From NCBI GenBank assembly GCA_964535465.1, contig CAZHUY010000004.1, forward strand, positions 1 through 54,677: DNA of 54,677 nt, read 5' to 3'. The notes beneath the pieces are model-generated. The model ran no database searches, was not told the DNA's origin, and worked only from the letters and a program-made list of their open reading frames with translations. Both the position numbers and the translations under genes were made by a program. Below are positions 25,057-54,506 of the stretch, one piece after another (position 1 is the stretch's first letter; each line of letters starts with the position of its first letter). This DNA is from an uncultured Myxococcales bacterium. GTDB taxonomy: Bacteria; Myxococcota_A; Polyangia; Fen-1088.

Positions 25057-25068
25057 TACCCTGGGGCG

Positions 25069-27336
25069 ATGCGCCGCCGCTGCTCACTGGGTCTGTGCCT
25101 GGTCCTTCTCGGCTGTCATGCGGGGCTGAAGGTCCGTGGCGACGCCGGGAGCGACGGCGTTCGTCTTGTCGCTGACGCCACGGCGAACGACGCCGCCACT
25201 CCTCTCGAAGATCGGGATGCCGCTTCCGACACCGGGCTGATCGGATTTTGCGGAAGGGTGGTGGCTGTGGCCGCGGGAACGGTGCATGCCTGCGCCGTGT
25301 CGAACGATGGTGTGCTGTGGTGCTGGGGTGACAACAGCGAGGGGCAGTTGGGCGACGGCACGACCGAAACCCGGACAACCCCCGTGCGCGTTGCGGGCCT
25401 GGGCACGGATGTGGCGCAGGTCGCGCTCAGCTACCTCTCTACCTGCGCGCTCATGCGCGATGGGGCTCTGTGGTGCTGGGGCAACAACAAGAACGGCCAA
25501 CTCGGCAACGACACCTGGACGGGCTCGCACACACCCAAGGCGGTCAAAAGCCTGGAGGGCCGGGTGGTGCAGTTGGTGGCGGACGGGTCAGTGTGCGCGC
25601 GGACCAGCGAAGGCCGGGTCTGGTGCTGGGGCTACCTACCCGACAACTCCACCATCATGCTCCTCAACCGGCCCCAGGAGATTGTCGGGCTCTCCGATGC
25701 TACCGACATCGCCGTGGGCTGGTCGCACCGTTGCGCGCTCAGATCCGACGGCACGGTCTGGTGCTGGGGCTCCAATTCCAAAGGTCAGTTGGGCAACGGC
25801 TCGCGCAAGGGCGGCCCGGCGCTCGTGCAAGTGAACGGCCTACCTCCGGCGAGACGGGTCTTTGCCGCCGCCGATGGGTCGTGCGCCCTCATGATGGACG
25901 GGTCGTTGTGGTGCTGGGGCGACGTGAACGACAGCCTGACCCCCACGCTCATGGGCCATCTGCCCGACACCGCCGAGGTGGCCCTGGGAAGCGAGCACGC
26001 GTGCGCGCGCCGCCACGATGGTACGGTGTGGTGCTGGGGAGGCAACCAGTACGGCCAATTGGGTGACGGAACGCTTTTGCCCAAGCCGTCGCCCTCGCTG
26101 GTGCGCGAGGTGAGGGAGGCCAGGCACATCGCCGTGGGTGGCGCCTTCGCCTGCGCGGTCGACGGGGAGGATGAGTTGCATTGTTGGGGCAGCAACGATT
26201 GGGGGACGCTCGGCATCGGTCGCTTGCCTGTGCAAACCGTGCCCAAGCCGGTCGCCAGCCTCAGCGCGCGCGTGGCGCAGCTCTCCGCCTCCGACCAGTC
26301 TTTTTGTGCACGTGGCGTGGACGGCGCTGTCTCCTGCTGGGGCAACAGCTTCTACACTGAGCTGGGCTATGGTCCCCAATCGGTGACGGCACGGCCGGCG
26401 CCCCTGACCTCGCTAGGCACCCGGGCGGTGCACATCGCCTCGGGCGGCGCGGGCACCTCGTGCGCCGTGCTGGCCGAGGGCGGGGCCTGGTGCTGGGGCA
26501 TGGTCAGCAACGCCAAGGGCGTGTTCGATCGCAAACCCTTTCCCGAGCAGGTCGCCGACCTACCGCGCGCGCGCCAAATCGCCGCGGGTTGGGGGCACGC
26601 CTGCACGCGCGGCGATGACGGCGTTTCCTGTTGGGGACGCAACGACAGCGGCGAGCTGGGCAACGGAGCCAAGTTCCTCTTCGCCATGGTACCCGGGCCG
26701 GTGAAGGACATCGGGGCGGACGTGGTGCAACTGGCCTCGTCGTACAACCACACCTGTGCGCGCCTATCCGACGGAACGCTGAAGTGCTGGGGCGCCAACA
26801 CCTGGGGCCAGCTGGGCGACGGCACCACCGCCGAGCGCCTGACCCCGGTGCAGGTGGCCGGGCTGGGCGGCAAGGCACGCGACGTGGCCACGGGTTGGGG
26901 CCACACCTGTGCCGTGCTCGAGACCGGCACGACCTGGTGCTGGGGCCAAAACGATCTGGGCCAACTGGCCGTCGACGCGCCAAGCTCCAGCCCCACGCCG
27001 GTGCGTATCGCGGGCCTGCCGCCGGCCCTGGCGGTTTCCAGCGGCGAGAACCACATCTGCGCGCTGGCCGTCGGCGAGGTCTGGTGCTGGGGACGCAACG
27101 ACATGGGCCAATTGGGCAACGGCACGAACGAGCCATGGCGCTCCGCCGCGACCCCGCCGGTGCGCGCGCAAGCCCCGGGCGTCGTCTTCGTCGAGGTCAG
27201 CGCGGGCGCCAACGCCACCTGCGCCCGCAGCAAGGACGACAACGTGTGGTGCTGGGGCACCCGGAACCACGGCTTGCAGGCCGACGGCGAAACCGGGTAC
27301 AGCCCAAAGCCGATGGCCGTGGCGGGGTGCCGCTGA
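25069..27336 (+). CDS. Lipoprotein with 14 RCC1 repeats (predicted double seven-bladed beta-propeller)
   Basis: Lipobox LCLVLLGC. There are 14 occurrences of the (W/H/S/K)CWG-x-N-x-x-GQLG blade signature (for example VLWCWGDNSEGQLGDG, ALWCWGNNKNGQLGND, TVWCWGSNSKGQLGNG). The gene starts 12 nt after the nuoN stop. Confidence 0.85.
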   Translation: MRRRCSLGLCLVLLGCHAGLKVRGDAGSDGVRLVADATANDAATPLEDRDAASDTGLIGFCGRVVAVAAGTVHACAVSNDGVLWCWGDNSEGQLGDGTTETRTTPVRVAGLGTDVAQVALSYLSTCALMRDGALWCWGNNKNGQLGNDTWTGSHTPKAVKSLEGRVVQLVADGSVCARTSEGRVWCWGYLPDNSTIMLLNRPQEIVGLSDATDIAVGWSHRCALRSDGTVWCWGSNSKGQLGNGSRKGGPALVQVNGLPPARRVFAAADGSCALMMDGSLWCWGDVNDSLTPTLMGHLPDTAEVALGSEHACARRHDGTVWCWGGNQYGQLGDGTLLPKPSPSLVREVREARHIAVGGAFACAVDGEDELHCWGSNDWGTLGIGRLPVQTVPKPVASLSARVAQLSASDQSFCARGVDGAVSCWGNSFYTELGYGPQSVTARPAPLTSLGTRAVHIASGGAGTSCAVLAEGGAWCWGMVSNAKGVFDRKPFPEQVADLPRARQIAAGWGHACTRGDDGVSCWGRNDSGELGNGAKFLFAMVPGPVKDIGADVVQLASSYNHTCARLSDGTLKCWGANTWGQLGDGTTAERLTPVQVAGLGGKARDVATGWGHTCAVLETGTTWCWGQNDLGQLAVDAPSSSPTPVRIAGLPPALAVSSGENHICALAVGEVWCWGRNDMGQLGNGTNEPWRSAATPPVRAQAPGVVFVEVSAGANATCARSKDDNVWCWGTRNHGLQADGETGYSPKPMAVAGCR

Positions 27337-27342
27337 CGCCGT

Positions 27343-27891
27343 CTACCACGTCTCCTTGTGTACGTACTTCGCGTCGAACCTGGTGCGTGCCGGCTTCTCC
27401 TCGGCGGGCCAGCCGATGGCGATGCCGGAGACCGGGACGATGTTCGCGGGCAACCCCAGGATCTTGCTCACGGCCTCGATGCGGGGCTGGCGCGGGTGAA
27501 TGCCCAGCCAGCAGGCGCCCAGCCCCAGGGCGTGGGCGGCCAGCAGCAGGTTCTCGATGGCGGCCGCGCAGTCTTGCAGCAGGTAGCTGAGCTCGTTGGC
27601 GTGGGCGGCGTCGAGATCACCGCACACCACGATGCCCAGCGGGGCGCCGGCGATCATGCTGCCGTTGGGCAGAGCGGTGGCCAGGGCTTGCAGGGTGGGC
27701 TTTTGGCGTGCCAGCACGAAACGCCAGGGATCCTTGCCACAGGCCGAAGGTGCGGCCATGGCCGCGGCCAGGAGATCGGCGACCATTTCGTCGGCGATGG
27801 GTTTCTGCTGATAGGCGCGCACGCTGCGCCGGCCGAAGAGGAAGGACAGTTGAGGGTTGAGGGCAGGGCTCATGGAAAGCGGTCTTACCAT
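27343..27891 (-). CDS. Nitroreductase-family flavoprotein
   Basis: Motifs: RRSVRAYQQKPI, LLAAAMAAPSACGKDPWRFV, QDCAAAIENLLLAAHALGLGACWLG, and GLP...PVSGIAIGWP near the C-terminus. Confidence 0.8.
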   Translation of the reverse strand: MVRPLSMSPALNPQLSFLFGRRSVRAYQQKPIADEMVADLLAAAMAAPSACGKDPWRFVLARQKPTLQALATALPNGSMIAGAPLGIVVCGDLDAAHANELSYLLQDCAAAIENLLLAAHALGLGACWLGIHPRQPRIEAVSKILGLPANIVPVSGIAIGWPAEEKPARTRFDAKYVHKETW

Positions 27892-28070
27892 GAAGCCGGG
27901 CCGCCCAGCAGAGGGCCGCAGGGACCACGCTCGGCCGCTTGTCGTCCCGGCGGAGACGGGAGTGGTGGACCCGTGTTATCCTCGTGGCAGGGCTTTGGTG
28001 CCGCATGCTGGGTTCTACCATCAACGATGATTCGGCCGAGCGTCGTCATGCTGCTGTTTCTCCATGAGTC

Positions 28071-29105
28071 ATGACGCAAGATCGTGATGACCCTGCCAGT
28101 GAGGATGGACCGGCGGCAGGCGGTCCTGCCGAGGAGGGCGTGACCAAACCCGTCTCTGCTCCCCCCTCGGTGGAGGCGCCAAGGTCGCGTTCGGTTGGCA
28201 GCTTTGCCGAATGGTTGCTGTTGCGGAAGAACTCGAGCGATGTTCGAGCCGCGGGCGGAAGCCTCTCGGCCGCGCGCAAGCAGAACATTCAGAGGGCACG
28301 CAACCTGGCCGAGATCGGCGATTGGGTCCTCGAATCAGCGGAGAGCGCCGCGCATCTCGCCGCCCTGAGTCTGTACCGCGAGGCCGTCTATTGGCTCTTT
28401 GCACCCGATACCCCGAGTCCCGTCACCATGACGGCCGTGTTCGATGCGGCCCCGCGAGAGATGCTGGAAAGCGCCGCCGGCGGTTGCGCGGAGCTGGCGC
28501 GCATGCGCACCACCCTGGCCGAGCAAGACTTCGTGGCCAGCGCCAATCTGCCGTCGGCCGAGCAGCGCACCGCCGCGCAATCGGCGAGCAGGTTCGTCAA
28601 GTCCCTCGTTCATCAAGTGCGAGAGCAGGCCGAAGGTCGCTCTCGCCTGGCGCGCCTCCCTTGGCGAAGGATGGCTCTCGCCTCGCTGGCCCTCATCGCC
28701 GTCCTCTCCCTGGTCGGGCTTGCGGCCAAGGTCTTCAGCCGCACCGATCTTGCCCAGGGCAAGCCGTGGACCACCAACAGTTCGCTGCGGGCCGACCTGC
28801 CTTCGAACCTGATGTTCCACACGGCGCTTCCCCACGAGATGAATCCCTGGTTCGAGATTGACCTGGGCGAGCCCAAGCGCATCCGCAGTCTCCACGTCAG
28901 GAACCGCACGGACTGTTGCCAGGATCGGACGACTCCGCTGCTGGCCGAAGTCAGCCTCGATCGAGTCACTTGGACCACCGTGGCCTTGCGCGAGGGCTAT
29001 TTCATTACCTGGACCCCCAGCTTCCCCCCCACCGACGCGCGCTATGTCCGCTTGCGTGTCCCCCGGGTCAGTGCCCTGCACCTCGAGGAAGTCAAAGTCT
29101 TCTAA
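28071..29105 (+). CDS. Type II membrane protein with a C-terminal discoidin (F5/8 type C-like) carbohydrate-binding domain
   Basis: A soluble N-terminal region of about 200 aa, a single TM helix (MALASLALIAVLSLVGLAA), then NPWFEIDLGEPKRIRSLHVRNRTDCCQDRTTPLLAEVSLDRVTW...ARYVRLRV. Confidence 0.7.
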   Translation: MTQDRDDPASEDGPAAGGPAEEGVTKPVSAPPSVEAPRSRSVGSFAEWLLLRKNSSDVRAAGGSLSAARKQNIQRARNLAEIGDWVLESAESAAHLAALSLYREAVYWLFAPDTPSPVTMTAVFDAAPREMLESAAGGCAELARMRTTLAEQDFVASANLPSAEQRTAAQSASRFVKSLVHQVREQAEGRSRLARLPWRRMALASLALIAVLSLVGLAAKVFSRTDLAQGKPWTTNSSLRADLPSNLMFHTALPHEMNPWFEIDLGEPKRIRSLHVRNRTDCCQDRTTPLLAEVSLDRVTWTTVALREGYFITWTPSFPPTDARYVRLRVPRVSALHLEEVKVF

Positions 29106-31027
29106 TGGGCGGTTTCCTGGCGAAGAACGTGCACCTGCTCGCGGCCTTGGCGGTCTTTGTGTGCTCGCGTGTTCTTCTGGTGCTGCTGCAGGTCCGCTTC
29201 GATGCCAGCCCGTTGACCTACTACTGGCAGTACGTGGATCCCGAGCTGCTGCGCCAGGATCTGCTCCGATCGATCTTCTACCTTCACTCCCAGCCACCGC
29301 TCTTCAATTTCTTCATCGGCATCGTCCTCAAGCTCTTTCCACACGGCTACGCCACGGCGTTCTCTCTCATCTTCTACGGCCTGGGAATCGTCCTGACCCT
29401 GAGCCTCTTTCGCTTGTTGGTGCTCTTGCGCATCCCCAAGACCCTGGCGCTCATCCTGACCGTTGTCTTCATCTTGTCTCCCGCCGTGCTCATGTACGAG
29501 CGCTGGTTCTTCTACGAGTACCCCTCCATGGTGCTCTTCTGCGCGCTCAGCTATTTCTTCTGCAAGTCTGTCGCCCGGGGCAGTGCCGGGGACGCCTTCG
29601 TGACCTTCGTGCTGGCGGCCGCCCTGTCCTTGATCCTGAATACCTTCCACTTCGTTTGGATGGTCGCCCTGGTCGCCGCGATGTGCATCCTCCATGGACG
29701 GTCGCGGAAGAGGGTGTTGCTGGCAGGGGCGCTGCCGCTCGCCATCGTCTTTGCCTTCAACCTGAAGAACCTGGTCGTCTTCGGGCATTTCAACATGGCG
29801 CCCTATCACTCCTCTGGGGCGCTGGCGCTGGAGACGGTTCTGCGCCTTCCCCTTCCCATGCGCGAAGAGCTGCACAGAGAGGGCAAGATCTCCAAGTGGT
29901 CGCTGGTCGGCCCCTACGCCGAGAGGCTGGAAGAGTATACGAACATAGGCATCGCGGCCCCACGTCGCTGGGGTGTTCCCGTTCTCGATGAGATGACCAA
30001 ATCGACCGGGGCGGTGAACCGGCATCACATCGTGTTTCTGGAGATGGCCGACGACCTGGCCCGCGACGCCATGTTTGCGGTCAAGCACTACCCCGACGTC
30101 ATCGCGCCGTCGGAGCCCAAGATCAAAAAGTGGCTCTTCGCCACGCCTGACGATTGCTGGGGCGTGCCCCGTTATGACCGCCTCGCCGGCTACACCAAAT
30201 GGTACTCGTTGATCTTCTTCGGTCCTGGGAACGCTTGGCTCGCCGTCGAATTGCTCCTTCCGCTTGCCTTCGCCCCGGTCGTGCTTCTTCGTGGCCTGCG
30301 CAAGCGAATCGCCAAATCCACCGCCGTGTTCTGGGGCTTCCTGGCCATCAACGTGGTCGGCTTCAACCTGCCCATGATCTTCTTGTCTGGTTACGAGCAA
30401 CACCGCTATCGATTCAGAACGGATTCACTCTCCTTCGTCTTGCTCGCCCTCCTGATGATGCACGGCTGGCGGGCGGTCGTGCGGCTGTGGCGCAAGCGCG
30501 GACCGACGGGGTGGAGCCGGCGACCATGGTTGGTTCCCGCGCCCGCCGCTTTGGCCGGCGCCACGACAGCGTCCCCGCCATCCTCTCCGCTCGGTCTCTT
30601 CCTCGATTCATTCTTCATGAATCTGGGGTTCGCGAGCCCCGCCGATCCCGCGGGGGCGTCGCGCGCGGGCCAGCAACAATCGCAAGAGGTCAGGAGCTGG
30701 CTCGAGGCGAACGGGGAAGCCATCTTGGGAAGCCGCCCCTGTAGCTTTGCTGGGCGCATGACCGCGGATGTCGGCGAGGTGCGTTTTGCCGCCAAGGACG
30801 ATGCGCTCTACATCATTCTGCTCGCGCGCCCCGCGGGACGGACCCTGACCCTTGATGGCTTGGTCCTCGAGCCCGACAGCACCGTCACCATGCTGGGCCA
30901 TCAAACGGGATCTCTCGAGGTCTCGCAGTTCAAGTCGGCCCTGACCATCCTGCTTCCCCAGCCCTTGCCCGCGTGGCCGGCCTACACCTTCAAGGTGACA
31001 CCGCTGCCCAAGAGCGTCTCTCTCTGA
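29105..31027 (+). CDS. Polytopic GT-C-like (PMT_2/ArnT-like) membrane protein with a C-terminal alpha-L-fucosidase-C-like beta-sandwich domain
   Basis: The start ATG shares one nt with the upstream stop (TAATG). The first loop has an acidic motif plus HSQPPLFNF, similar to the hPPL signature of GT-C enzymes. There are at least 9 hydrophobic helices. The tail VRFAAKDDALYIILLARPAGRTLTLDGLVLEPDSTVTMLG...AYTFKVTPLP resembles fucosidase C-terminal domains. The family assignment is tentative. Confidence 0.6.
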   Translation: MGGFLAKNVHLLAALAVFVCSRVLLVLLQVRFDASPLTYYWQYVDPELLRQDLLRSIFYLHSQPPLFNFFIGIVLKLFPHGYATAFSLIFYGLGIVLTLSLFRLLVLLRIPKTLALILTVVFILSPAVLMYERWFFYEYPSMVLFCALSYFFCKSVARGSAGDAFVTFVLAAALSLILNTFHFVWMVALVAAMCILHGRSRKRVLLAGALPLAIVFAFNLKNLVVFGHFNMAPYHSSGALALETVLRLPLPMREELHREGKISKWSLVGPYAERLEEYTNIGIAAPRRWGVPVLDEMTKSTGAVNRHHIVFLEMADDLARDAMFAVKHYPDVIAPSEPKIKKWLFATPDDCWGVPRYDRLAGYTKWYSLIFFGPGNAWLAVELLLPLAFAPVVLLRGLRKRIAKSTAVFWGFLAINVVGFNLPMIFLSGYEQHRYRFRTDSLSFVLLALLMMHGWRAVVRLWRKRGPTGWSRRPWLVPAPAALAGATTASPPSSPLGLFLDSFFMNLGFASPADPAGASRAGQQQSQEVRSWLEANGEAILGSRPCSFAGRMTADVGEVRFAAKDDALYIILLARPAGRTLTLDGLVLEPDSTVTMLGHQTGSLEVSQFKSALTILLPQPLPAWPAYTFKVTPLPKSVSL

Positions 31028-31076
31028 GGCGCGCGCCCGCGCATGCGTCGTGGCTCTCATGCGCGGCGATCCGAAC

Positions 31077-31679
31077 TCAGGGTTCGGACCCGCGACAGCG
31101 CTGGGTGTAGGCACCGGCCAGGCCAGGGACACCGGGGGCGCCGTCGGGAAAGGCGCGCAGAATCCTGGCAAGGAGGGCCGTGCGTTGCGCGGGCGGTGTC
31201 TGCTGGTGCTCGGTCGCGAAGGCGTAGGCGACCTTGGGGGTGGTGACGCCCAGGGCCCCTCGCAGCTCCAGCTCCAGCGAGAGCGCGTGTGCTTCGGCGT
31301 TCACGGCCGCGTTCACGCGTTCCTCGCAGGGGGCTTGCGAGGGGGGCCAGGGTGGAATGAGCAGGTGCATGAGCAGGTGAGCGGCGCGTGCTGCGGCCTC
31401 ATCGTCGCCCAGGCTTTGGTCGAGGATGAGGGGACCGTCTTCCCGCAACTGGGATTCCTGGCCGAAGCACCAGAGGCCAAGGTCCGTGGCTTGCGAGACA
31501 GCCTGCGCATCCGGCGTGGCCAAGCGGGGCAGGGCGCCACCCAGCCGTTCGATCAGGCGGGCCTGACGGGCGGGGTCGGCCTGCGTGCCGCGTGGGCACG
31601 CCTGGGGATACGGTCGCGACAGGACCAGGGCCCCGGCCAGCAGCAGCAGAACGGCCGCGATCAGGATCGCCAGACGCAT
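31077..31679 (-). CDS. Secreted hypothetical protein
   Basis: I chose the internal start MRLAILIAAVLLLLAGALVLS (signal peptide or anchor). I recognise no family. It is divergent from the MotA-like gene. Confidence 0.5.
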   Translation of the reverse strand: MRLAILIAAVLLLLAGALVLSRPYPQACPRGTQADPARQARLIERLGGALPRLATPDAQAVSQATDLGLWCFGQESQLREDGPLILDQSLGDDEAAARAAHLLMHLLIPPWPPSQAPCEERVNAAVNAEAHALSLELELRGALGVTTPKVAYAFATEHQQTPPAQRTALLARILRAFPDGAPGVPGLAGAYTQRCRGSEP

Positions 31680-31756
31680 GGTCTCGCCATTGTAACCCGA
31701 GGCGGGCGCATTTTTTTGTTCACAGGTCGGGCCGAGCCAGGCAACCTTGGGGGGCC

Positions 31757-32617
31757 ATGACGTCAACCATTCTCGCTGGGCTCTCCCTCATCGATAGCAT
31801 CGGTCTCGTCATTCTGGGCAGCACCCTCTTGACCCTGGTGCTCGCCATCGTGATGAACCTGTCCTTGCGCGGTCGCTACGCCAGACTCGAGCGCGAGGTG
31901 GCGCGGGCCAGTGCCCCCGACGAGCCGTTCAACCATGCCGTCCTCGACCACATCTGGGCCGAGGCGCGGGCGGCGGCGCAGCGGGGCGGCGAGGTCAACA
32001 CCCAGGCCATCATCGAGGATCGTTTTCAGGCGGAGATGCGGCCGGCGCTGTTGGCCGAGCGCTACGTGCGCGCGGCCACCGGCTTGGTCATCATCCTCGG
32101 CCTGCTGGGCACCTTCTACGGTCTGACCCTGTCCATCGGCAAGATCGTGCAACTGGTGGCGGTGGAGACCGGGGCCAACACCGACATCACCCAGGGCGTG
32201 ACCCAGGGCCTGACCTCGGCGCTCTCGGGCATGGCGGTGGCCTTCTCCAACTCGCTGCTGGGCGTGCTCTCCGCGGTCATCTTGACCATCGTGGGCGTGC
32301 TGTCCAACGTGGCCGACCGACGCACCGGCGTGATGGTGCAGATCGAGGCCTATCTCGAGCGCATGCTGCCCCAGGTGGGGGCGACGCGTGCCCACGCCAT
32401 GGCGGGGACCGGGGCGGGCGAGGCCATGACCCGCTTGGACGGGACGGTGGTGCGCTTCGAGACGGCGCTGCAGAACTTCGCCAAGAGCACGCGCGACTTC
32501 CACGAGTTCAACGCGCACCTCAAGGACAACATCTCGCGCCTGAGCCTGGCCTTCGCCGATCTGAGCGAGACCCTGAAGGCCCACGCCGGTGCCCTGAAGC
32601 CTGGCAGCCGACTCTAG
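31757..32617 (+). CDS. MotA/TolQ/ExbB-family proton-channel protein with a C-terminal helical tail of about 100 aa
   Basis: I chose the start MTSTILAGLSLIDSIGLVILG (TM1). The channel core is LVIILGLLGTFYGLTLSIGKI and GLTSALSGMAVAFSNSLLGVLSAVILTIV. The helical C-terminal tail includes FETALQNFAKSTRDFHEFNAHLKDNISRLSLAFADLSETL. Confidence 0.75.
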   Translation: MTSTILAGLSLIDSIGLVILGSTLLTLVLAIVMNLSLRGRYARLEREVARASAPDEPFNHAVLDHIWAEARAAAQRGGEVNTQAIIEDRFQAEMRPALLAERYVRAATGLVIILGLLGTFYGLTLSIGKIVQLVAVETGANTDITQGVTQGLTSALSGMAVAFSNSLLGVLSAVILTIVGVLSNVADRRTGVMVQIEAYLERMLPQVGATRAHAMAGTGAGEAMTRLDGTVVRFETALQNFAKSTRDFHEFNAHLKDNISRLSLAFADLSETLKAHAGALKPGSRL

Positions 32618-32624
32618 GGGCACC

Positions 32625-33536
32625 ATGCGAAACCGCCGCAACCTCCTGTCGGATCACGAGAGCACGCGCGAGATCTGGCCGGCCTTCACCGACGTCATGT
32701 CCACCATGGCGTTGATCCTGTTCGTGTTGGTGCTGCTGGCCTATGTGCGCAACCTGATCAGCGGCAAGCAGATGGATGCCTTCCAGAAGCGCATCGCCGC
32801 CACCGAGCTGCAGTTGCGCAAAATGCAGACCGATCTGCAGAGCGCGGCCGCCGAGCTGTCGCTCTCGCAGATACGCCTGCGCGAGCAGCAGGCGGTGGTG
32901 GCCGACAGCAACCGACAACTCGGCACCCTGCGCTCGCAGTTGCAGGGCATCGCGGTGTTGCGCGTGTCGGTGCTGGACAAGTTGAGGCGCGCCATCGAAG
33001 CCGAGTTGAGCCCGGGCACGGACGCCGGCAGACCCCAGGTGGCGACCATCAGCGACAACGGTGACATCGCCATCAACGAGAGCCTGGTGTTCGAGTTCAA
33101 CTCGCACGCGCTGAAGAAAGAGGCCAAGCCGGTCCTCAATTCGCTGGCCAAGGCCCTGGGCAAGCTGCTGGAAGACCCCGAGGTGCGTGAGAACATCGAT
33201 ACCATCGTCATCCAAGGGCACACCGACGAGCGCGGCTCGGCGGCGTTCAACTGGGAGCTGTCGGCCAAGCGGGCCACCGTGGTGCTCGAGTACCTGTTCC
33301 AGGCCAACAAGACGCTGGCCGACTCTTATGGAAACTACTTCGCCGCCAGCGCCTTCTCCAAGTTCCGTCCCATGAACCCGGCCAAGACCGAGGCCGCCTA
33401 TCAGCAGAACCGGCGCATCGAGATCTCGGTCGTGCCCAGGGACAGCAACGTGCGCAAGGTCATCGACGAGTACGCCCAGAACATCAACCCAGCCCTGCAG
33501 CCCGCCCCCGCCGCGAGCCCGACCCCGGCGCGTTGA
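32625..33536 (+). CDS. MotB/OmpA-family protein: plug-TM segment with conserved Asp, coiled-coil insertion, OmpA-like peptidoglycan-binding domain
   Basis: N-terminus IWPAFTDVMSTMALILFVLVLLA (MotB-type TM helix with Asp). Heptad-rich segment of about 85 aa (QKRIAATELQLRKMQTDLQSAAAELSLSQIRLREQQAVVADSNRQLGTLRSQL). OmpA-like domain motifs: FEFNSHALKKEAKPVL, IQGHTDERGS, NWELSAKRA, NRRIEI. Confidence 0.8.
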   Translation: MRNRRNLLSDHESTREIWPAFTDVMSTMALILFVLVLLAYVRNLISGKQMDAFQKRIAATELQLRKMQTDLQSAAAELSLSQIRLREQQAVVADSNRQLGTLRSQLQGIAVLRVSVLDKLRRAIEAELSPGTDAGRPQVATISDNGDIAINESLVFEFNSHALKKEAKPVLNSLAKALGKLLEDPEVRENIDTIVIQGHTDERGSAAFNWELSAKRATVVLEYLFQANKTLADSYGNYFAASAFSKFRPMNPAKTEAAYQQNRRIEISVVPRDSNVRKVIDEYAQNINPALQPAPAASPTPAR

Positions 33537-33584
33537 ACCCGTCCTAAACCTCGTCCCTTGCCAAGACGATGGTAGAAGTTCGAC

Positions 33585-35621
33585 ATGGCGTTCTTCGCGA
33601 ACCTCCATCGGCTTGATCCCGGGCTGGGCGGCAAGGCGCGCTCGTTGGTGAGGTTGTCCGATGCGGGCTTGACCACGCCGGTGGGCTTCGTGGTGTTGGA
33701 TGATGTCTTTCGGGCGCTCTGTCCCGCCAGGGCCTTGCCCAGGCAAATCGATCAGGTCGGGCTCGAGGCCTTGGACCACATCACGAACGACTTCCTCGCC
33801 GCATCCTGGCCCGCGGGATTCATCCCCCAGCTCACCGCCCAACTGGCACAGGCGCCGGCCGCGCTATGGTCGGTGCGCTCGTCGTTCGCCGGCGAGGACC
33901 AGGCAGGGGCCTTGGGCGCGGGGGTTTATCACTCGGTGGTAGGGATTCCGACGTCGCAAGTGCCGGCGGCGATTCGCGAGGTCTTGTCTTCGGCCTTGTC
34001 CCCGGGCGCGGTGGCGTATGCGCTGGCGCATGGTCTGGAGCCCGCGGCCAAGCCCCTCACCGTGTTGGTCCACCACTTCATCCAGGGCGATGCCGACGGC
34101 GGCGCAGCTTACGACAAGGCACCCGAGTCATTCGTGGTGCAAGTGAACAACGGCCGCCTCTCCGAAGCGGCCCGCGGACGCCTGCGTGACAGCCTGCAGA
34201 GGCTGGCCGAGCAGTATGGTCCCGTCGAGGTGGAATGGGCCGCCGTGAACGACGAGCTGGTGTTTCTGCAGATGCGCCCCTACCTCGCGCCCGCAACCCC
34301 GACGGACTGGTCAGGGTGGAAGGACCTGGGGGCGTCGTCACCTGGCGATTGGCATTGGGACCAGGCCCACAACCCGCTACCCCTCTCTCCCCTGCACGAG
34401 GGCTTGGTGGGGCTGATTGACCTGCGCTGCATGATGGGATTCCGGCAGCGCGTGCTCGGACATTATCTCTTCTACACCAGGGACAACCGGCTGGGGCCCG
34501 CTGCCATCAGCGCCGAGCAAGCCCCCACGCGCTTTGCGGTGCTGCGCGCCGAGGTCGAAGCGGGGCTGGCGAGGATGGGCGCGGAGCCATCCCTGCAGGG
34601 CGCGCTGGATCTGTTCGTGAGCATTCACGAGCCGATCTTCGGCGTGATCCAGCCGGCCCTGCGCTCGGCACGCACCCGGCTGAGGGATTTTCTGCGCGAG
34701 CAGGGGTCCGCCGGGCTGTTCGACTTTGCGCACCTGCTGACCGGCGTGACATCTGTGGCCAGCGAGCGCCGCCAACGGGCCGCGGCCTTGCGCGCGGCGG
34801 ACGACCCGCAGGCGGCCGCGCAGGCGCGCCAGCGCTACCTCGAGCTGTTCGGAGACGAGAGCCCCGTGTGGGACGTGGCGACTCCCACGTGCAACGAATC
34901 TCCTGGGTGCTTGGGGACGGCCGAGACGTCGACGCCGCCCGGCCCGACGGCCGACCACGAGCGCGCCGCGGCGGCGGTCGAAGCCCGGATCCGCCCCGAG
35001 CGACACGCCGAATTCCGCGAGCTGCTGGCCCTGGCGCGACAGGCGGTCGCGCTTGGCGAGGAGGACGATTGGCTGTACGCCCGTGCCCAGGCGGCGCTGC
35101 GCCGCGCGCTCTTGCGTGGGGGCAATCGGCTGGTGGAGCAGGGAACCCTGGCCCGGCCGGACGATGTCTTCTTCCTGCCCTTGGAGCTGGTGCGCGCCCT
35201 GGACTCGGGAACACCGGCGCCCGCCAGCCTGCAAGAACAAGCGGAAGCGGGGCGGTCCGCCTGGCAGGCAGCCTGCGCGCAACCGCCGCCTGTGGTGACC
35301 GCCGCCGACACGACGACCATCAAGGGCGTGGGCACCGGCGGTCGCGCCGTGGGCCGTGTGGTGGTCCATCGTGCAGGGCGCCCGCAGCAGGCCCGGGATC
35401 AGGTCCTGCTGGCCTCGACCCTGCTGCCCAGCGAGTTGCCCCTCATCGTGGCGGCGGCCCTCGTCGTCGAAACCGGCGGCCCGCTGGACCACGTGGCCAC
35501 CCAGGCGCGCGAGCGCCAGCTCCCCGCGGTGGTAGGCGCCGCGGGGGCCACCCGCGTCCTGCGCGAAGGCGATCTGGTGTTGGTGGACGCGGATCGCGGT
35601 CTGGTCGTGCGCCTGGCGTGA
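33585..35621 (+). CDS. PEP-utilising-enzyme-family phosphotransferase (PPDK_N ATP-grasp domain + swivelling phosphohistidine domain, no PEP/pyruvate TIM-barrel); PpsA/rifampin-phosphotransferase-like architecture
   Basis: N-terminal GGKARSLVRLSDAGLTTPVGFVV and VRSSFAGEDQAGALGAGVYHSVVG. C-terminal mobile domain GVGTGGRAVGRVVV...VLLASTLLPSELPLIVAAALVVETGGPLDHVATQARERQLPAVVG...GDLVLVDADRGLVV. Confidence 0.75.
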   Translation: MAFFANLHRLDPGLGGKARSLVRLSDAGLTTPVGFVVLDDVFRALCPARALPRQIDQVGLEALDHITNDFLAASWPAGFIPQLTAQLAQAPAALWSVRSSFAGEDQAGALGAGVYHSVVGIPTSQVPAAIREVLSSALSPGAVAYALAHGLEPAAKPLTVLVHHFIQGDADGGAAYDKAPESFVVQVNNGRLSEAARGRLRDSLQRLAEQYGPVEVEWAAVNDELVFLQMRPYLAPATPTDWSGWKDLGASSPGDWHWDQAHNPLPLSPLHEGLVGLIDLRCMMGFRQRVLGHYLFYTRDNRLGPAAISAEQAPTRFAVLRAEVEAGLARMGAEPSLQGALDLFVSIHEPIFGVIQPALRSARTRLRDFLREQGSAGLFDFAHLLTGVTSVASERRQRAAALRAADDPQAAAQARQRYLELFGDESPVWDVATPTCNESPGCLGTAETSTPPGPTADHERAAAAVEARIRPERHAEFRELLALARQAVALGEEDDWLYARAQAALRRALLRGGNRLVEQGTLARPDDVFFLPLELVRALDSGTPAPASLQEQAEAGRSAWQAACAQPPPVVTAADTTTIKGVGTGGRAVGRVVVHRAGRPQQARDQVLLASTLLPSELPLIVAAALVVETGGPLDHVATQARERQLPAVVGAAGATRVLREGDLVLVDADRGLVVRLA

Positions 35622-35793
35622 AGGGAGTTTGCTGGTGCCTCGACCGATGCGTACTGCTCGCATCTGGCTTGGTCTTTCGCGCGCTGGCTTCGTTGCTCGT
35701 CGGTTACATAGCTACGGCTTGCGCTCTCCTCGCGCCTCGCCATCGCACGAAATCCACAGCGCCAGCTGCAATCACTACGCCCCGGTCGAGGCC

Positions 35794-37050
35794 CTAGTCC
35801 GTGGCCAGGTACGGCCGGATCATCTCGTACTTGGCCTGGTTCACGCTGACCCAGTCGTCCTTGAGGATGCCCTCGGTGTCGCCCGAGTTGGGGTTCATGC
35901 ACCAGAAGGTCCAGTTCGAGTCCTTGCCGACGTACTCCATGAAGGCCTTCAGCCACTTGTGCGCGGTGTTGTTGGGGTCGGCGGCGGAGGCCTCCTTGAT
36001 GCCGAATTCGCCGAAGAAGAGCGGGGCGATGCCTTCCTTGTGGATGAACCAGAACTTGCTGTCCCAGATGTCAGGCAGGTTGTCGGGAAAGCTGCTGTCC
36101 GAGAACCAGGTCTGGTTGTACACCTCGGGCCCGTATTCGTGGGCCGAGTACCATAGGTTGGACGAGGGGATCTCGCTGTCCTCGATGGGATAGTCGGCCA
36201 CGCCCTTGAGGTTGCCGCCCCACCAGTAGTTGTCGCCGCGGTAGTTCTCGACCCCCTCCACGATGATGATGATCTTGGGGTTGACCTTCAGTATGGCCTG
36301 GCCGCACTTGACCGCGGCCTTGCGCCAGTCGGTGGTGCCGTAGCCATCCTGGTCGTAGCCCCAGGTGGCGGGCGGCTTCATGCCCTGGGTGGTGTTGCCG
36401 TGGGGCTCGTTCTTCAGATCGGCCGCCACCACCGCGGGGTTGTCCTTGTAGCGCTCGATCAGCATGACCCAATCCGAGATCCAGCTCTCTTCGCTGTGGT
36501 CCTTGGTGTACCACAGGGTCTCCTGCATGTAGCCGTCGTGGGCGCGCGAGTGATTGTCGAGGATCACCTTGAGCCCGATGCGGTTGCACTCGTCCAGGAT
36601 CTTGTCCATGACCTGCAGCGAGGTGAGACCACCGAGATCCAGGTTGAGCGGCTCGTTGGTGTAGGGGTCGGTGCCGTAGGCATTCACCTGGATGCCGGTG
36701 GGCGTCGCGGTCAACATGTCGTTGCACCAGGGCAAACGCACGCTGTTGAAGCCCAGATCCTTGATCTGGCGAAGCATGGACTTGTAGTCACGCGCCCAAA
36801 GCCCGTGGGGAAAGTAGTTGGTGGTCTCGAAGCCGAACCAGTTGACCCCGGTCAGGCGACCGTGTTGGCAGTCGGGGCAGCCTTGCGGTCCCGGCGAAGA
36901 CGAGCCTCCCTTGCCGGAGACGCCGCCGCTGCCACCCCCGTTCCCGCCGGAGGCGCCGGGCTCGCTGTCGCCGCCCGAGCACCCCGGCGACGCGAGTAGG
37001 GCCATGAGGGAGATGACGGCGGCATGAGATGGGATCGATGGCCGAGTCAT
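35794..37050 (-). CDS. GH5 endoglucanase (cellulase) lipoprotein
   Basis: I chose the start MTRPSIPSHAAVISLMALLASPGC (lipobox). A Gly/Ser linker follows. Motifs: GVNWFGFET, HGLWARDY, GFNSVRLPW, LKNEPHG (acid/base Glu), FGEFG (nucleophile Glu). The 746-aa ORF in the track is an upstream read-through extension. Confidence 0.85.
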   Translation of the reverse strand: MTRPSIPSHAAVISLMALLASPGCSGGDSEPGASGGNGGGSGGVSGKGGSSSPGPQGCPDCQHGRLTGVNWFGFETTNYFPHGLWARDYKSMLRQIKDLGFNSVRLPWCNDMLTATPTGIQVNAYGTDPYTNEPLNLDLGGLTSLQVMDKILDECNRIGLKVILDNHSRAHDGYMQETLWYTKDHSEESWISDWVMLIERYKDNPAVVAADLKNEPHGNTTQGMKPPATWGYDQDGYGTTDWRKAAVKCGQAILKVNPKIIIIVEGVENYRGDNYWWGGNLKGVADYPIEDSEIPSSNLWYSAHEYGPEVYNQTWFSDSSFPDNLPDIWDSKFWFIHKEGIAPLFFGEFGIKEASAADPNNTAHKWLKAFMEYVGKDSNWTFWCMNPNSGDTEGILKDDWVSVNQAKYEMIRPYLATD

Positions 37051-37212
37051 GAGCTCACAATCTACCCGGCCCAACCTGAAGGCCAAGTCACAAGAGCGAA
37101 ATGTGGCAAAAAGTGAGAAGTGGCGCGGAAATCGACAGCGCGCCCGCAAGATTCTGGCCTTGGGCCGACCAGTTCGCCTAGCATTCCTGGCAATTCTCGT
37201 TGAGGAGTCCCC

Positions 37213-38274
37213 ATGGTTTCGCCTCGTTCCCCTCGTCTCTTGGCCTTGGCTTGTCTGCTGTCCGCCTGCGCTTCGACCTCGGAGGAGGAAGAAGGAGGAG
37301 GTGGCGCCGCCGGCGGCAGCGGCGGTGGCGGCGGGTCGGAGGGTAATAAGACCTTCACCGTCGATGGTCGCCACCTGAAGGATCCCTGCGGAAACAAGGT
37401 CGTCCTGCGCGGGGTGAACGAGATGATCGTCTGGAGCTCCGACAAGACCGGCGCCTCCGTTTACCAGGAGATCGCCAAGACCGGCGCCAACGTGGTGCGC
37501 ATCGTGTGGAGCGCGAAGGGGAGCAGCGCCTCGGACCTGGACAAGACCATCAGCAACGCCCTGGAGAACAAGATGATTCCCATGGTCGAGAACCACGACA
37601 CCACGGGCAAGCTCGCAGAGATTCCCGCGGCGGTCGATTATTGGACCAAGGCGGATGTGGCAGAGGTCCTGCAAAAATACGCGGACAAGATCCTGCTCAA
37701 CATCGGCAACGAGGCTGGAGACGGCAGTGTCCCCTCGGACGAGTTCGAAGGCACCTACGCCACCGCCATCAAGCGATTGCGCGATGCCGGATTCAAGTTC
37801 CCCCTCATCGTCGATTCGGCCGGATGGGGCAGCAGCATCCAGACCATCTGGTATTCCGGCGATGTGGTGGTGGCCTCCGATCCGCTCAAGAACACCATGC
37901 TCAGCATTCACACCTACTGGGACGATGCCGACGGCGCCCTCACCCGCAGGCACCTGACCGAGGTGGTGGATGATTTGAAACTGCCGCTGATCGTGGGGGA
38001 GTTCGCCGACACCCGGGTCAACGTCTGCACGCACGGCTCGTACAATGTCAAAGAGCTGATGGCCGTGGCCCAGGAGAAGGAGATCAGCTGGTTGGCCTGG
38101 TCGTGGGGGGCGGTCAAGAACAACGATTGCCCGGGCATGCTCGACATGACCAGCGACGGCACCTTCGCCGGCTTGACGAATTGGGGCCTGGAGGTCGCCA
38201 GCAACGACGCCAACAGCATCAAGAACACGTCGGTGCGTTCGCCCTACATCGAGAAGGGCAGCTGCGACCAGTAA
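37213..38274 (+). CDS. GH5 beta-mannanase-like lipoprotein
   Basis: Lipobox LACLLSAC. An acidic/Gly linker follows. Motifs: VLRGVNEMIVW, IAKTGANVVRIVW, LLNIGNEAG (acid/base Glu), LIVGEFA (nucleophile Glu), WLAWSW. Confidence 0.75.
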   Translation: MVSPRSPRLLALACLLSACASTSEEEEGGGGAAGGSGGGGGSEGNKTFTVDGRHLKDPCGNKVVLRGVNEMIVWSSDKTGASVYQEIAKTGANVVRIVWSAKGSSASDLDKTISNALENKMIPMVENHDTTGKLAEIPAAVDYWTKADVAEVLQKYADKILLNIGNEAGDGSVPSDEFEGTYATAIKRLRDAGFKFPLIVDSAGWGSSIQTIWYSGDVVVASDPLKNTMLSIHTYWDDADGALTRRHLTEVVDDLKLPLIVGEFADTRVNVCTHGSYNVKELMAVAQEKEISWLAWSWGAVKNNDCPGMLDMTSDGTFAGLTNWGLEVASNDANSIKNTSVRSPYIEKGSCDQ

Positions 38275-53414: not shown

Positions 53415-54068
53415 ATGACCCCTTCTGCTGATGGTCTGGTTCAAAACCTCCTAGCCCTTCCGGTTTTCCGTTCCGAATGGGTGCTTTGGCTCCTTCTCGG
53501 TCTATCGCTGCTCTCGGTGGCGGTCATGGTGGAACGCTGGATTTTCTACCGGCGACGGAAGGTCAATTTCGACAACCTGCGAGACGAGTTCACCAAGCAC
53601 CTGGACAAGGGCGATTTCGAGGCCGCGGCCAAGCTGCTGGCCAAGACCGACAGCCTGGAGACCAACGTGACCCTGGCGGGCCTGCGTGGCTACGACAAGG
53701 GGCCGGAGTCGGTCGAGGATTTGTTGGCCGGCGCCATGTCGCGCGAAAAGGGCATGTACGAGCGGCGCCTGTCCATCCTGGCCACCCTGGCCTCCAACGC
53801 GCCCTACATCGGTCTGTTCGGAACCGTGCTGGGTATCGTGCGCGCCTTCAAGGATCTGTCCAAGGACATCGCCAGCGCCAGCTCGGGCGTGATGGCCGGC
53901 ATTGCCGAGGCCTTGGTGGCCACCGCGGTCGGCCTGTTGGTCGCCATCCCGGCCATCATCGCCTACAACGTGTTCAAGGGCATGGTGAAGGACTCGGTGA
54001 CCAACACCGAGGCCCTGTCACGCCTGTTGCTGGCCGAGCTGAAGGCCGCGGGCGACAAGAGAGAGTAG
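53415..54068 (+). CDS. TolQ/ExbB-family proton-channel protein
   Basis: The ATG at 53415 is preceded by GAGG. Motifs: LATLASNAPYIGLFGTVLGIVRAF and GIAEALVATAVGLLVAIPAIIAYNVF. Confidence 0.85.
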   Translation: MTPSADGLVQNLLALPVFRSEWVLWLLLGLSLLSVAVMVERWIFYRRRKVNFDNLRDEFTKHLDKGDFEAAAKLLAKTDSLETNVTLAGLRGYDKGPESVEDLLAGAMSREKGMYERRLSILATLASNAPYIGLFGTVLGIVRAFKDLSKDIASASSGVMAGIAEALVATAVGLLVAIPAIIAYNVFKGMVKDSVTNTEALSRLLLAELKAAGDKRE

Positions 54069-54077
54069 GGGATCGCC

Positions 54078-54506
54078 ATGGCTGGTTTGAGCAACGGCAA
54101 CGGCGAGGACGACGGGCCGCTCGCCAACATCAACATCATCCCCTTCGTCGACATCGTTCTGGTTCTGCTCATCATCTTCATGCTGACCTCGGCCGCCATC
54201 GTACGCGCCAGCATGCAGGTCAACCTGCCCAAGGCGGCCAGCGCCGGGGCGCGCGTCGAATCCACGGTCAACCTGGTCTACACCAAGGAAGGCAAGCTCT
54301 TGCTCAACGGCAAGGAGAGCAACCTGGACGAGATCGCCCAGCACGTGAAGCGCGAGCGCGAGAGCAATCCCAAGCTGCAGGCGGTGATCGCCGGCGACAA
54401 GGGCGTCGAATACGGCAAGGTGATGGACCTCATCGATCTGGTCAAGCGCAACGGCGTGACCGCTTTCGCCCTGGACGTGGAACGCGCACCCGCCGCGGCC
54501 GAGTAG
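54078..54506 (+). CDS. ExbD/TolR-family protein
   Basis: ANINIIPFVDIVLVLLIIFML (TM helix with conserved Asp), then the periplasmic domain VNLPKA...LLLNGKE...VIAGDKGVEYGKVMDLIDLVKRNG. Confidence 0.85.
   Translation: MAGLSNGNGEDDGPLANINIIPFVDIVLVLLIIFMLTSAAIVRASMQVNLPKAASAGARVESTVNLVYTKEGKLLLNGKESNLDEIAQHVKRERESNPKLQAVIAGDKGVEYGKVMDLIDLVKRNGVTAFALDVERAPAAAE

Follow-up and report, generated by a model that had tools for sequence, protein, structure and literature searches.

A probable membrane motor of the ZorAB branch encoded as a two-gene unit in Polyangia and Clostridia

Introduction

Ion-driven membrane motors built on a 5:2 subunit plan are known to perform five jobs: (i) flagellar rotation, (ii) Ton-dependent uptake, (iii) Tol-dependent division, (iv) gliding and type IX secretion (T9SS), and (v) Zorya defense. 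A proton-carrying aspartate within a transmembrane (TM) helix is universal among them. A pair of adjacent genes, here called A and B, raises the question of which of these jobs, if any, an orphan pair of this kind performs. The two genes lie on contig CAZHUY010000004.1 (assembly GCA_964535465.1) of an uncultured member of the Polyangia (Myxococcota), a contig of 54,677 nucleotides (nt) with 66% guanine + cytosine (GC) that was analyzed as a whole and is called the window below. A and B probably make up a self-contained A5B2-type membrane motor that is driven by ions, most likely protons, and that falls within the ZorAB branch of the MotAB/ExbBD/TolQR superfamily.

Compact and devoid of effectors, the pair is related to ZorAB and has been maintained as a unit in two phyla that are far apart. 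A search of the full-text literature retrieved no paper on its family. It could reveal what a ZorAB-type motor does without nucleases and how a wall-anchored stalk sets the register of a motor. Cultured carriers are found among the Clostridia and include Alkaliphilus metalliredigens, Geosporobacter ferrireducens, and Natronincola.

A Conserved Two-Gene Unit

A and B are real, conserved genes. Both are kept in 10/10 genomes of the same genus at 62-76% identity, and the ATG start codon of A is backed by the N-termini of 20 homologs. At third codon positions, the GC content of A is 0.82 and that of B is 0.91. The stop codon of A and gene B are 7 nt apart. An independent 12.3-kb contig from a bioreactor metagenome reproduces positions 30900-35664 of the window with zero substitutions; the gene order is therefore not an artefact of assembly. 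The two genes are adjacent, B coming directly after A, in all 8 Polyangia relatives, in all 16 Clostridia loci, and in approximately 45 alphaproteobacterial loci, and no conserved third gene stands beside them in any of these three groups.

Subunit A

A first AlphaFold run of A on a shallow alignment gave an unusable model with a predicted local distance difference test (pLDDT) score of 60, while the cross-phylum alignment brought the score to 79.6. The resulting model comprises TM1 (residues 14-50), two cytoplasmic helices (61-75 and 82-93), TM2 (95-137), TM3 (144-183), and two tail helices (185-215 and 221-279). All significant Foldseek matches to this model are A subunits of 5:2 motors (ExbB, ZorA 8qyk/8qyd, TolQ, and PomA). 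The top 13 matches are all ExbB, with a best E of 2.6e-4 and a target-normalized TM-score (TMt) of up to 0.65.

Judged by sequence profiles, A is much nearer to ZorA than to ordinary ExbB/TolQ. Alignment of the A family with a genuine myxobacterial ZorA1 by hhalign returns a probability of 94.6% (E 6.5e-8, 98 columns), and alignment with the window's own ExbB/TolQ returns 6.5%. PADLOC was run on A, B, the proteins encoded on either side of the pair (a Pps/Rph-like enzyme and a secreted protein), and ten longer relatives of A. From the window, only A and B matched, to ZorA and ZorB models; for A, the ZorA1 model covers the TM2-TM3 core with an E of 3.3e-10. Within this core, T119 (GLLGTFYGL) and S166 (AFxxSL) are invariant across Polyangia and Clostridia. 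Their segments align with GVLGTF and AFNTSL of a ZorA1, which are the segments holding Thr147 and Ser184, the two residues of E. coli ZorA that touch Asp26 of ZorB.

The tail of A starts with a helix that extends TM3, continues through a low-confidence, flexible linker of 41-53 residues, and closes with a terminal helix. The last 42 residues have a constant length in 13 Polyangia sequences. Heptad quantization was sought in the length of the tail linker and is absent from it.

Subunit B

The PADLOC ZorB1 model matches residues 8-282 of B with an E of 8.3e-29, and the Pfam OmpA family matches its C-terminal domain with 52.7 bits (E 5.8e-14). The 22 sequences compared, which come from two phyla, all share the W18-P19-x-F21-T22-D23 motif around the TM aspartate, the GHTD motif, and residues N209, L212, and R216. 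These last three residues are spaced like the Y151-N152-L155-R159 set of ZorB, on which peptidoglycan binding depends (PMC11946911), and the peptidoglycan-binding motif of B is intact.

The most regular feature of B is the length of its stalk. The distance from the aspartate to the invariant SN(R)EL motif is 72 residues (10 heptads + 2) in 8/8 Polyangia and 79, 86, 93, or 107 residues in 14 Clostridia. A further 108 homologs have distances of 93 (101 sequences) or 86 residues (7 sequences). All five length classes equal 2 mod 7, i.e., only whole heptads have been gained or lost, which argues for a continuous, phase-constrained coiled coil linking the axle helix to the wall-binding domain. The segment that follows, from SN(R)EL to GHTD, is fixed at 102 residues. 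The diderm Polyangia have a shorter stalk than the thick-walled Clostridia.

These features agree with an initial annotation of the locus, which had described an orphan MotA/MotB-type (5:2-type) pair with helical elaborations and whose coordinates and features all hold. For A it had given one TM helix, a cytoplasmic insert, two further TM helices, and a helical tail of about 100 residues, an order that the AlphaFold helices reproduce. For B it had given a TM aspartate, a coiled coil, and an OmpA-like domain, corresponding to Asp23 in WPAFTD, a helical stalk, and the Pfam OmpA match. It had also placed no flagellar, Tol-Pal, TonB, or gliding genes beside the pair, and none occur within ~10 kb of A-B in the window. 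The TolQR/ExbBD set that it had located separately at 53415-54506 is a canonical ExbB/ExbD pair, with 116.9 bits for MotA_ExbB and 94.4 bits for ExbD.

Comparison with Named Systems

A-B departs from Zorya, MotAB, ExbBD, and PRK09039 pairs in several of the features that define each of them. The first of these systems is Zorya, represented by the ZorA-ZorB structures of E. coli (PDB 8QYD) and Shewanella (8VVN) (PMC11946911). Like A, ZorA has three TM helices followed by a cytoplasmic helical tail. ZorB, like B, has an N-terminal TM helix bearing the aspartate, an OmpA-like peptidoglycan-binding domain, and the same (Y/F)N..L...R motif. ZorA and ZorB are the best sequence-profile matches to A and B, and ZorA structures are among the top fold matches. 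However, the tail of A is a helix-loop-helix of ~100 amino acids (aa), whereas that of ZorA is a pentameric coiled coil of ~500 aa. B carries a 10-heptad stalk, whereas the corresponding domain of ZorB is fused directly to the TM helix with no linker (PMC11946911). Both proteins score far under the curated ZorA/ZorB cut-offs (B reaches 36.2 bits with NF041788 ZorB1, for which the cut-off is 400), no ZorC/D/E or other effector is linked to them, and the pair does not lie in defense islands. The likeness to ZorAB, with a far shorter A and without ZorC/D/E, had been pointed out in the initial annotation and is supported.

A resembles ExbB and TolQ in having three TM helices and a GLLGT motif within TM2, and ExbB is the best structural match. 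Their partners ExbD and TolR belong to PF02472, whereas B is of the OmpA/MotB type, and neither TonB nor TolA is linked to A-B. MotAB, PomAB, and MotPS resemble B in their aspartate-bearing TM helix and OmpA-like domain, and the PDB sequences of MotS and MotB match it with E values of 2e-7 to 5e-6. A, on the other hand, lacks the 4-TM layout of MotA (the model has three TM helices) and its large FliG-contacting cytoplasmic domain. The NCBIfam MotB models, whose cut-offs are 259 or higher, give B no more than 56 bits. No flagellar genes occur in the window neighborhood, in the loci of 8 relatives, or in any other locus examined. Public records name the clostridial homologs "MotB", and the labels "chemotaxis protein MotB" and "flagellar motor protein" are probably wrong for the A-B family.

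The fourth comparison is with uncharacterized alphaproteobacterial pairs of a MotA-like protein and a PRK09039 protein. As in A-B, a channel subunit with a tail is followed by a protein that combines an aspartate-bearing TM helix with a coiled coil and an OmpA domain. The core of the alphaproteobacterial A protein is ~30% identical to A, but the whole protein has ~400 aa and a different tail, the stalks of the B proteins lengthen them to as much as 1100 aa, and the pairs have a fixed housekeeping context (ClpA/B, LepA, and M23). B of the window scores 78.4 bits with the PRK09039 models (NF006543-6; cut-off 305), whereas the alphaproteobacterial B proteins score 460-540 bits.

Distribution and Relocation

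A profile search of 1.84 billion representative proteins found 1103 relatives at E <= 0.001 and 73 at E <= 1e-30. Outside the Polyangia, the nearest relatives in species genomes are those of the Clostridia Natronincola, Geosporobacter, Tindallia, and Alkaliphilus, with identities of 30-37% for full-length A and 38-47% for B. In the tree of B, Polyangia and Clostridia each form one clade, with Shimodaira-Hasegawa-like approximate likelihood ratio test (SH-aLRT) values of 68 and 89, respectively, and together they form one fully supported group. The alphaproteobacterial pairs are a remote outgroup on a branch of 3.57 substitutions per site. The longer relatives of A (400-784 aa; the ten run through PADLOC) likewise match ZorA models only weakly. 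The short pair is therefore a branch of a broad ZorA-like radiation and not a degraded Zorya system. A different short pair is present in a genome of another myxobacterial family (G183; L110 1177-2761), where an A-like protein of 266 aa (hhalign probability of 94.8% with the A profile) accompanies an OmpA-type, B-like protein of 259 aa. Short-tailed ZorA-like pairs may have arisen more than once.

Of the 89 genomes of its own family, 25 carry A. Two genera account for 11/11 and 12/13, two more have one carrier each, and 15 have none; in the first two genera, the pair is near-universal and single-copy. One other genome of the sister genus lacks A. In a further sister-genus genome (G361:C11:84575-85337), A matches as two adjacent pieces (model positions 32-89 and 88-286), which suggests a frameshifted or disrupted copy.

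The A-B pair changes its genomic position as a cassette. Across the family, at least 11 different genes adjoin it upstream, and the genome of the window itself retains a vacant site. Three relatives (G001, G006, and G009) have A-B between a PilZ gene and a downstream gene, and both of these genes are kept on a 3482-nt contig of the window genome (C424). Between the two, C424 has 27 nt, as opposed to the 1889 nt of leader, A, and B in G009 (L017 9056-10944). Neither terminal repeats nor mobility genes were seen at the junctions of this empty site. The closest metagenomic relative, with 88% identity, seems to share the arrangement of A-B and the Pps/Rph-like gene found in the window, so this placement is not brand new.

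The 400 nt upstream of A in the window match no relative, and no sigma-70-like site was found in the 77-nt spacer that precedes A. In five related loci (L013, L014, L017, L019, and L020), the motif CGACCxCGG(C/T)TAnnAT ends ~8 nt before the ATG of A and resembles a -10 box positioned for a transcript with little or no leader. In the window, this motif is lacking and a G-rich stretch takes its place. Three other loci (L016 3932-4663 on the minus strand, L018 8346-9071 on the plus strand, and L122 5254-5985) encode, 15 nt 5' of A and on the same strand as A, a protein of 241-243 aa with a signal peptide, the look of a beta-barrel, and no Pfam family. A Na+/H+ exchanger gene (PF00999) lies just 3' of B in four related genomes with three upstream contexts (L121, L125, L126/L020, and L139) and is missing from the Clostridia loci and from the genome of the window. 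It may be a remnant of an ancestral context and was treated as lineage synteny.

Proposed Mechanism and Alternatives

In the motor proposed here, a rigid coiled-coil stalk of two B chains would extend to the cell wall and hold the B dimer in place there. Ion flow past Asp23 of B would turn the A pentamer around B. The C-terminal helix of A, carried on its flexible cytoplasmic linker, would be the input/output surface that receives signal or force from, or passes it to, a partner encoded elsewhere. As a best guess, the cellular role is that of a chromosomal device for envelope-state sensing or signaling rather than classical Zorya-type defense, possibly tied to cyclic di-GMP (c-di-GMP). A PilZ gene lies directly 5' of A in three genomes of the genus, at least four sister-genus genomes have an EAL gene in that position, and a HAMP-GGDEF gene is found within 10 kb of A-B in 6 of the 16 Clostridia loci, adjoining the pair in two of them. 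This neighborhood link is weak but recurring and constitutes a lead, not a result. A bolder and rather unlikely proposal is that A-B represents a further functional class of 5:2 motors, effector-less and self-relocating, shared by Polyangia and Clostridia. In such a class, the heptad-phased stalk would couple the state of the wall to rotation of the A ring and the C-terminal helix of A would talk to PilZ, EAL, and GGDEF proteins. A-B would then be a mechanosensor that connects the wall to a second messenger and neither a defense nor a motility device.

Several points weigh against the motor interpretation and the role suggested for it. A falls below threshold with Pfam MotA_ExbB (PF01618; 13.2 bits for a cut-off of 22.9, E 0.074), and a genome-wide scan with this family found 10-11 canonical paralogs and missed A. 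The score of A with NCBIfam ZorA_2 (NF033915) is 28.8 bits for a cut-off of 100, and PDB sequences searched with the A profile yielded no motor protein. The A5B2 stoichiometry and the rotation are presumed from homology. The tail region of the A model has a pLDDT of only 50-78, and no candidate partner for the tail has emerged. The c-di-GMP link amounts to two independent Polyangia events among ~15 contexts, was drawn post hoc, and includes some closely related loci. The evidence for expression of A is weak, with transcription represented by three short contigs inside A from a single biogas-fermenter run labeled RNA-Seq.

Two alternatives retain the pair but assign it a different kind of work. 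A-B may be a minimal Zorya-like anti-phage system that senses damage to the envelope by a phage and either recruits distant effectors or kills by proton leak (abortive infection). Its closest profile matches, ZorA and ZorB, favor this explanation, as does a behavior typical of accessory DNA, with many insertion contexts, a clean empty site, a variable interval in the genome of the window, and presence in 4 of 19 genera of the family. Yet no defense neighbors occur in the 8 relatives' loci covered in full or in the other contexts examined. The initial annotation had suggested looking for enrichment in defense islands. Among the Pfam-checked neighbors of the relatives' A-B loci, and of the interval between nuoN and the Pps/Rph-like gene in relatives, no gene looks like a defense or mobile-element gene. 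The ZorC model matches nothing in 9 genomes of the genus, although the controls also gave no match, and the ZorD model is uninformative because it matches generic SNF2 helicases only, including in 11 of 14 control genomes. Moreover, the tail of A is short, whereas all tested truncations of the ZorA tail abolished Zorya defense in E. coli (PMC11946911). The near-universal, single-copy presence of the pair in two genera also speaks against defense, as do the remote alphaproteobacterial pairs, which are not part of the A-B family itself, with their housekeeping neighbors. An anti-phage function is rated as unlikely. It is quite improbable, too, that the device does not rotate at all and that A-B keeps the fold of a motor but works as a peptidoglycan-tethered ion channel or envelope anchor, i.e., as a gated leak or a tether. 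The tail of A would suit such a device, being no rigid shaft but a helix-loop-helix with a linker of unquantized length, and no rotor-like partner is encoded nearby. On the other side, neither the aspartate nor the Thr/Ser ring varies across two phyla, a constancy to be expected of a functional ion pathway. The strictly kept heptad phase of the stalk likewise speaks for the importance of the angle at which the TM helix is set relative to the wall-binding domain.

A further alternative, extremely improbable and already refuted in the form of a conserved module, extends the unit to three genes. The motor pair would control, or be controlled by, the downstream ATP-grasp/swivel phosphotransferase, perhaps together with the divergent secreted protein. 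The Pps/Rph-like gene does follow B on the same strand after 48 nt with no terminator-like site between them, and the metagenomic relative with 88% identity seems to be arranged in the same way. However, the enzyme gene is present in all genomes of the genus and lies on a contig other than that of A-B in 10/10 relatives, and it also occurs in at least 4 family genomes that are free of A-B. In 5/5 same-genus relatives, it belongs to a backbone in which nuoN and a variable cargo of 0.8-7 kb precede Pps-ihfB-orf-serS, and A-B is not there. The cargo differs from genome to genome (YkuD, sigma-54 activator, kinase, GH2, and GT2 genes). Conversely, none of the other genes of the window lies within ~9 kb of A-B in the loci of 8 relatives (13-19 kb each). 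Because the enzyme gene resides on a conserved backbone without A-B and is found in genomes devoid of the pair, the linkage of a third gene fails and the two-gene unit stands. The initial annotation had taken the enzyme as a possible effector and had called for a synteny comparison of all three genes with A-B. The linkage of A to B was upheld, and those of the enzyme gene and of the secreted-protein gene (31077-31679) were not. The Pps/Rph-like enzyme was rejected as an effector on synteny and phyletic pattern and is a chance neighbor of A-B. The secreted protein, which has no family matches and is missing from the loci of relatives, was rejected as a partner.

Features of the Locus and Neighboring Genes

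The coordinates of A, B, their functional segments, and the flanking genes are compiled in Table 1.

Table 1. Features of the A-B locus, in window coordinates
Feature	Position	Strand	Description
Divergent secreted-protein gene	31077-31679		shares the upstream spacer with A
Spacer 5' of A	31680..31756	+	77 nt, common to the divergent gene 31077-31679; not homologous to the leader of relatives
Gene A	31757..32617	+	286 aa, ExbB/ZorA-type channel subunit, 3 TM helices and a cytoplasmic C-terminal tail of ~100 aa
A residues 95-183	32039..32305	+	TM2, periplasmic loop, and TM3, predicted ion-pathway core; invariant GLLGT119FYGL and GMxVAFxxS166L
A residues 221-279	32417..32593	+	C-terminal cytoplasmic helix; cross-phylum motif F..(N/S)TRDFxEFNxHLKxN..R
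Gene B	32625..33536	+	303 aa, MotB/ZorB-type: N-terminal TM helix, stalk, and OmpA-like domain
B Asp23 codon	32691..32693	+	within W18-P19-x-F21-T22-D23 (WPAFTD in window B)
B stalk, ~residues 44-130	32754..33014	+	heptad-phased coiled coil between the TM helix and conserved IIAxSNRELG...AVLR
B OmpA-like domain, residues 156-263	33090..33413	+	peptidoglycan-binding; GHTD and F208-N209-x-x-L212-x-x-x-R216
Pps/Rph-like enzyme gene	33585-35621	+	678 aa, PPDK_N and PEP-utilizers swivel domain, no TIM barrel (Pfam)

In the bioreactor contig (run X1), the T-run of the spacer upstream of A is longer by one T, at window position 31710, which is a difference in homopolymer length between samples or assemblies. 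The interval between nuoN and the Pps/Rph-like gene measures 8.5 kb in the window (25057-33584) and encodes an RCC1 lipoprotein, a nitroreductase, a discoidin protein, a GT-C-like protein, the secreted open reading frame, A, and B. The same interval spans 0.8 kb in one same-genus genome and holds 3.4-6.8 kb of unrelated cargo in four others (L101-L105). On the far side of the enzyme gene, five relatives have merely ~200-300 nt between the Pps/Rph-like gene and ihfB, and a divergent pair of GH5 genes (35794-38274) lies between the two only in the genome of the window.

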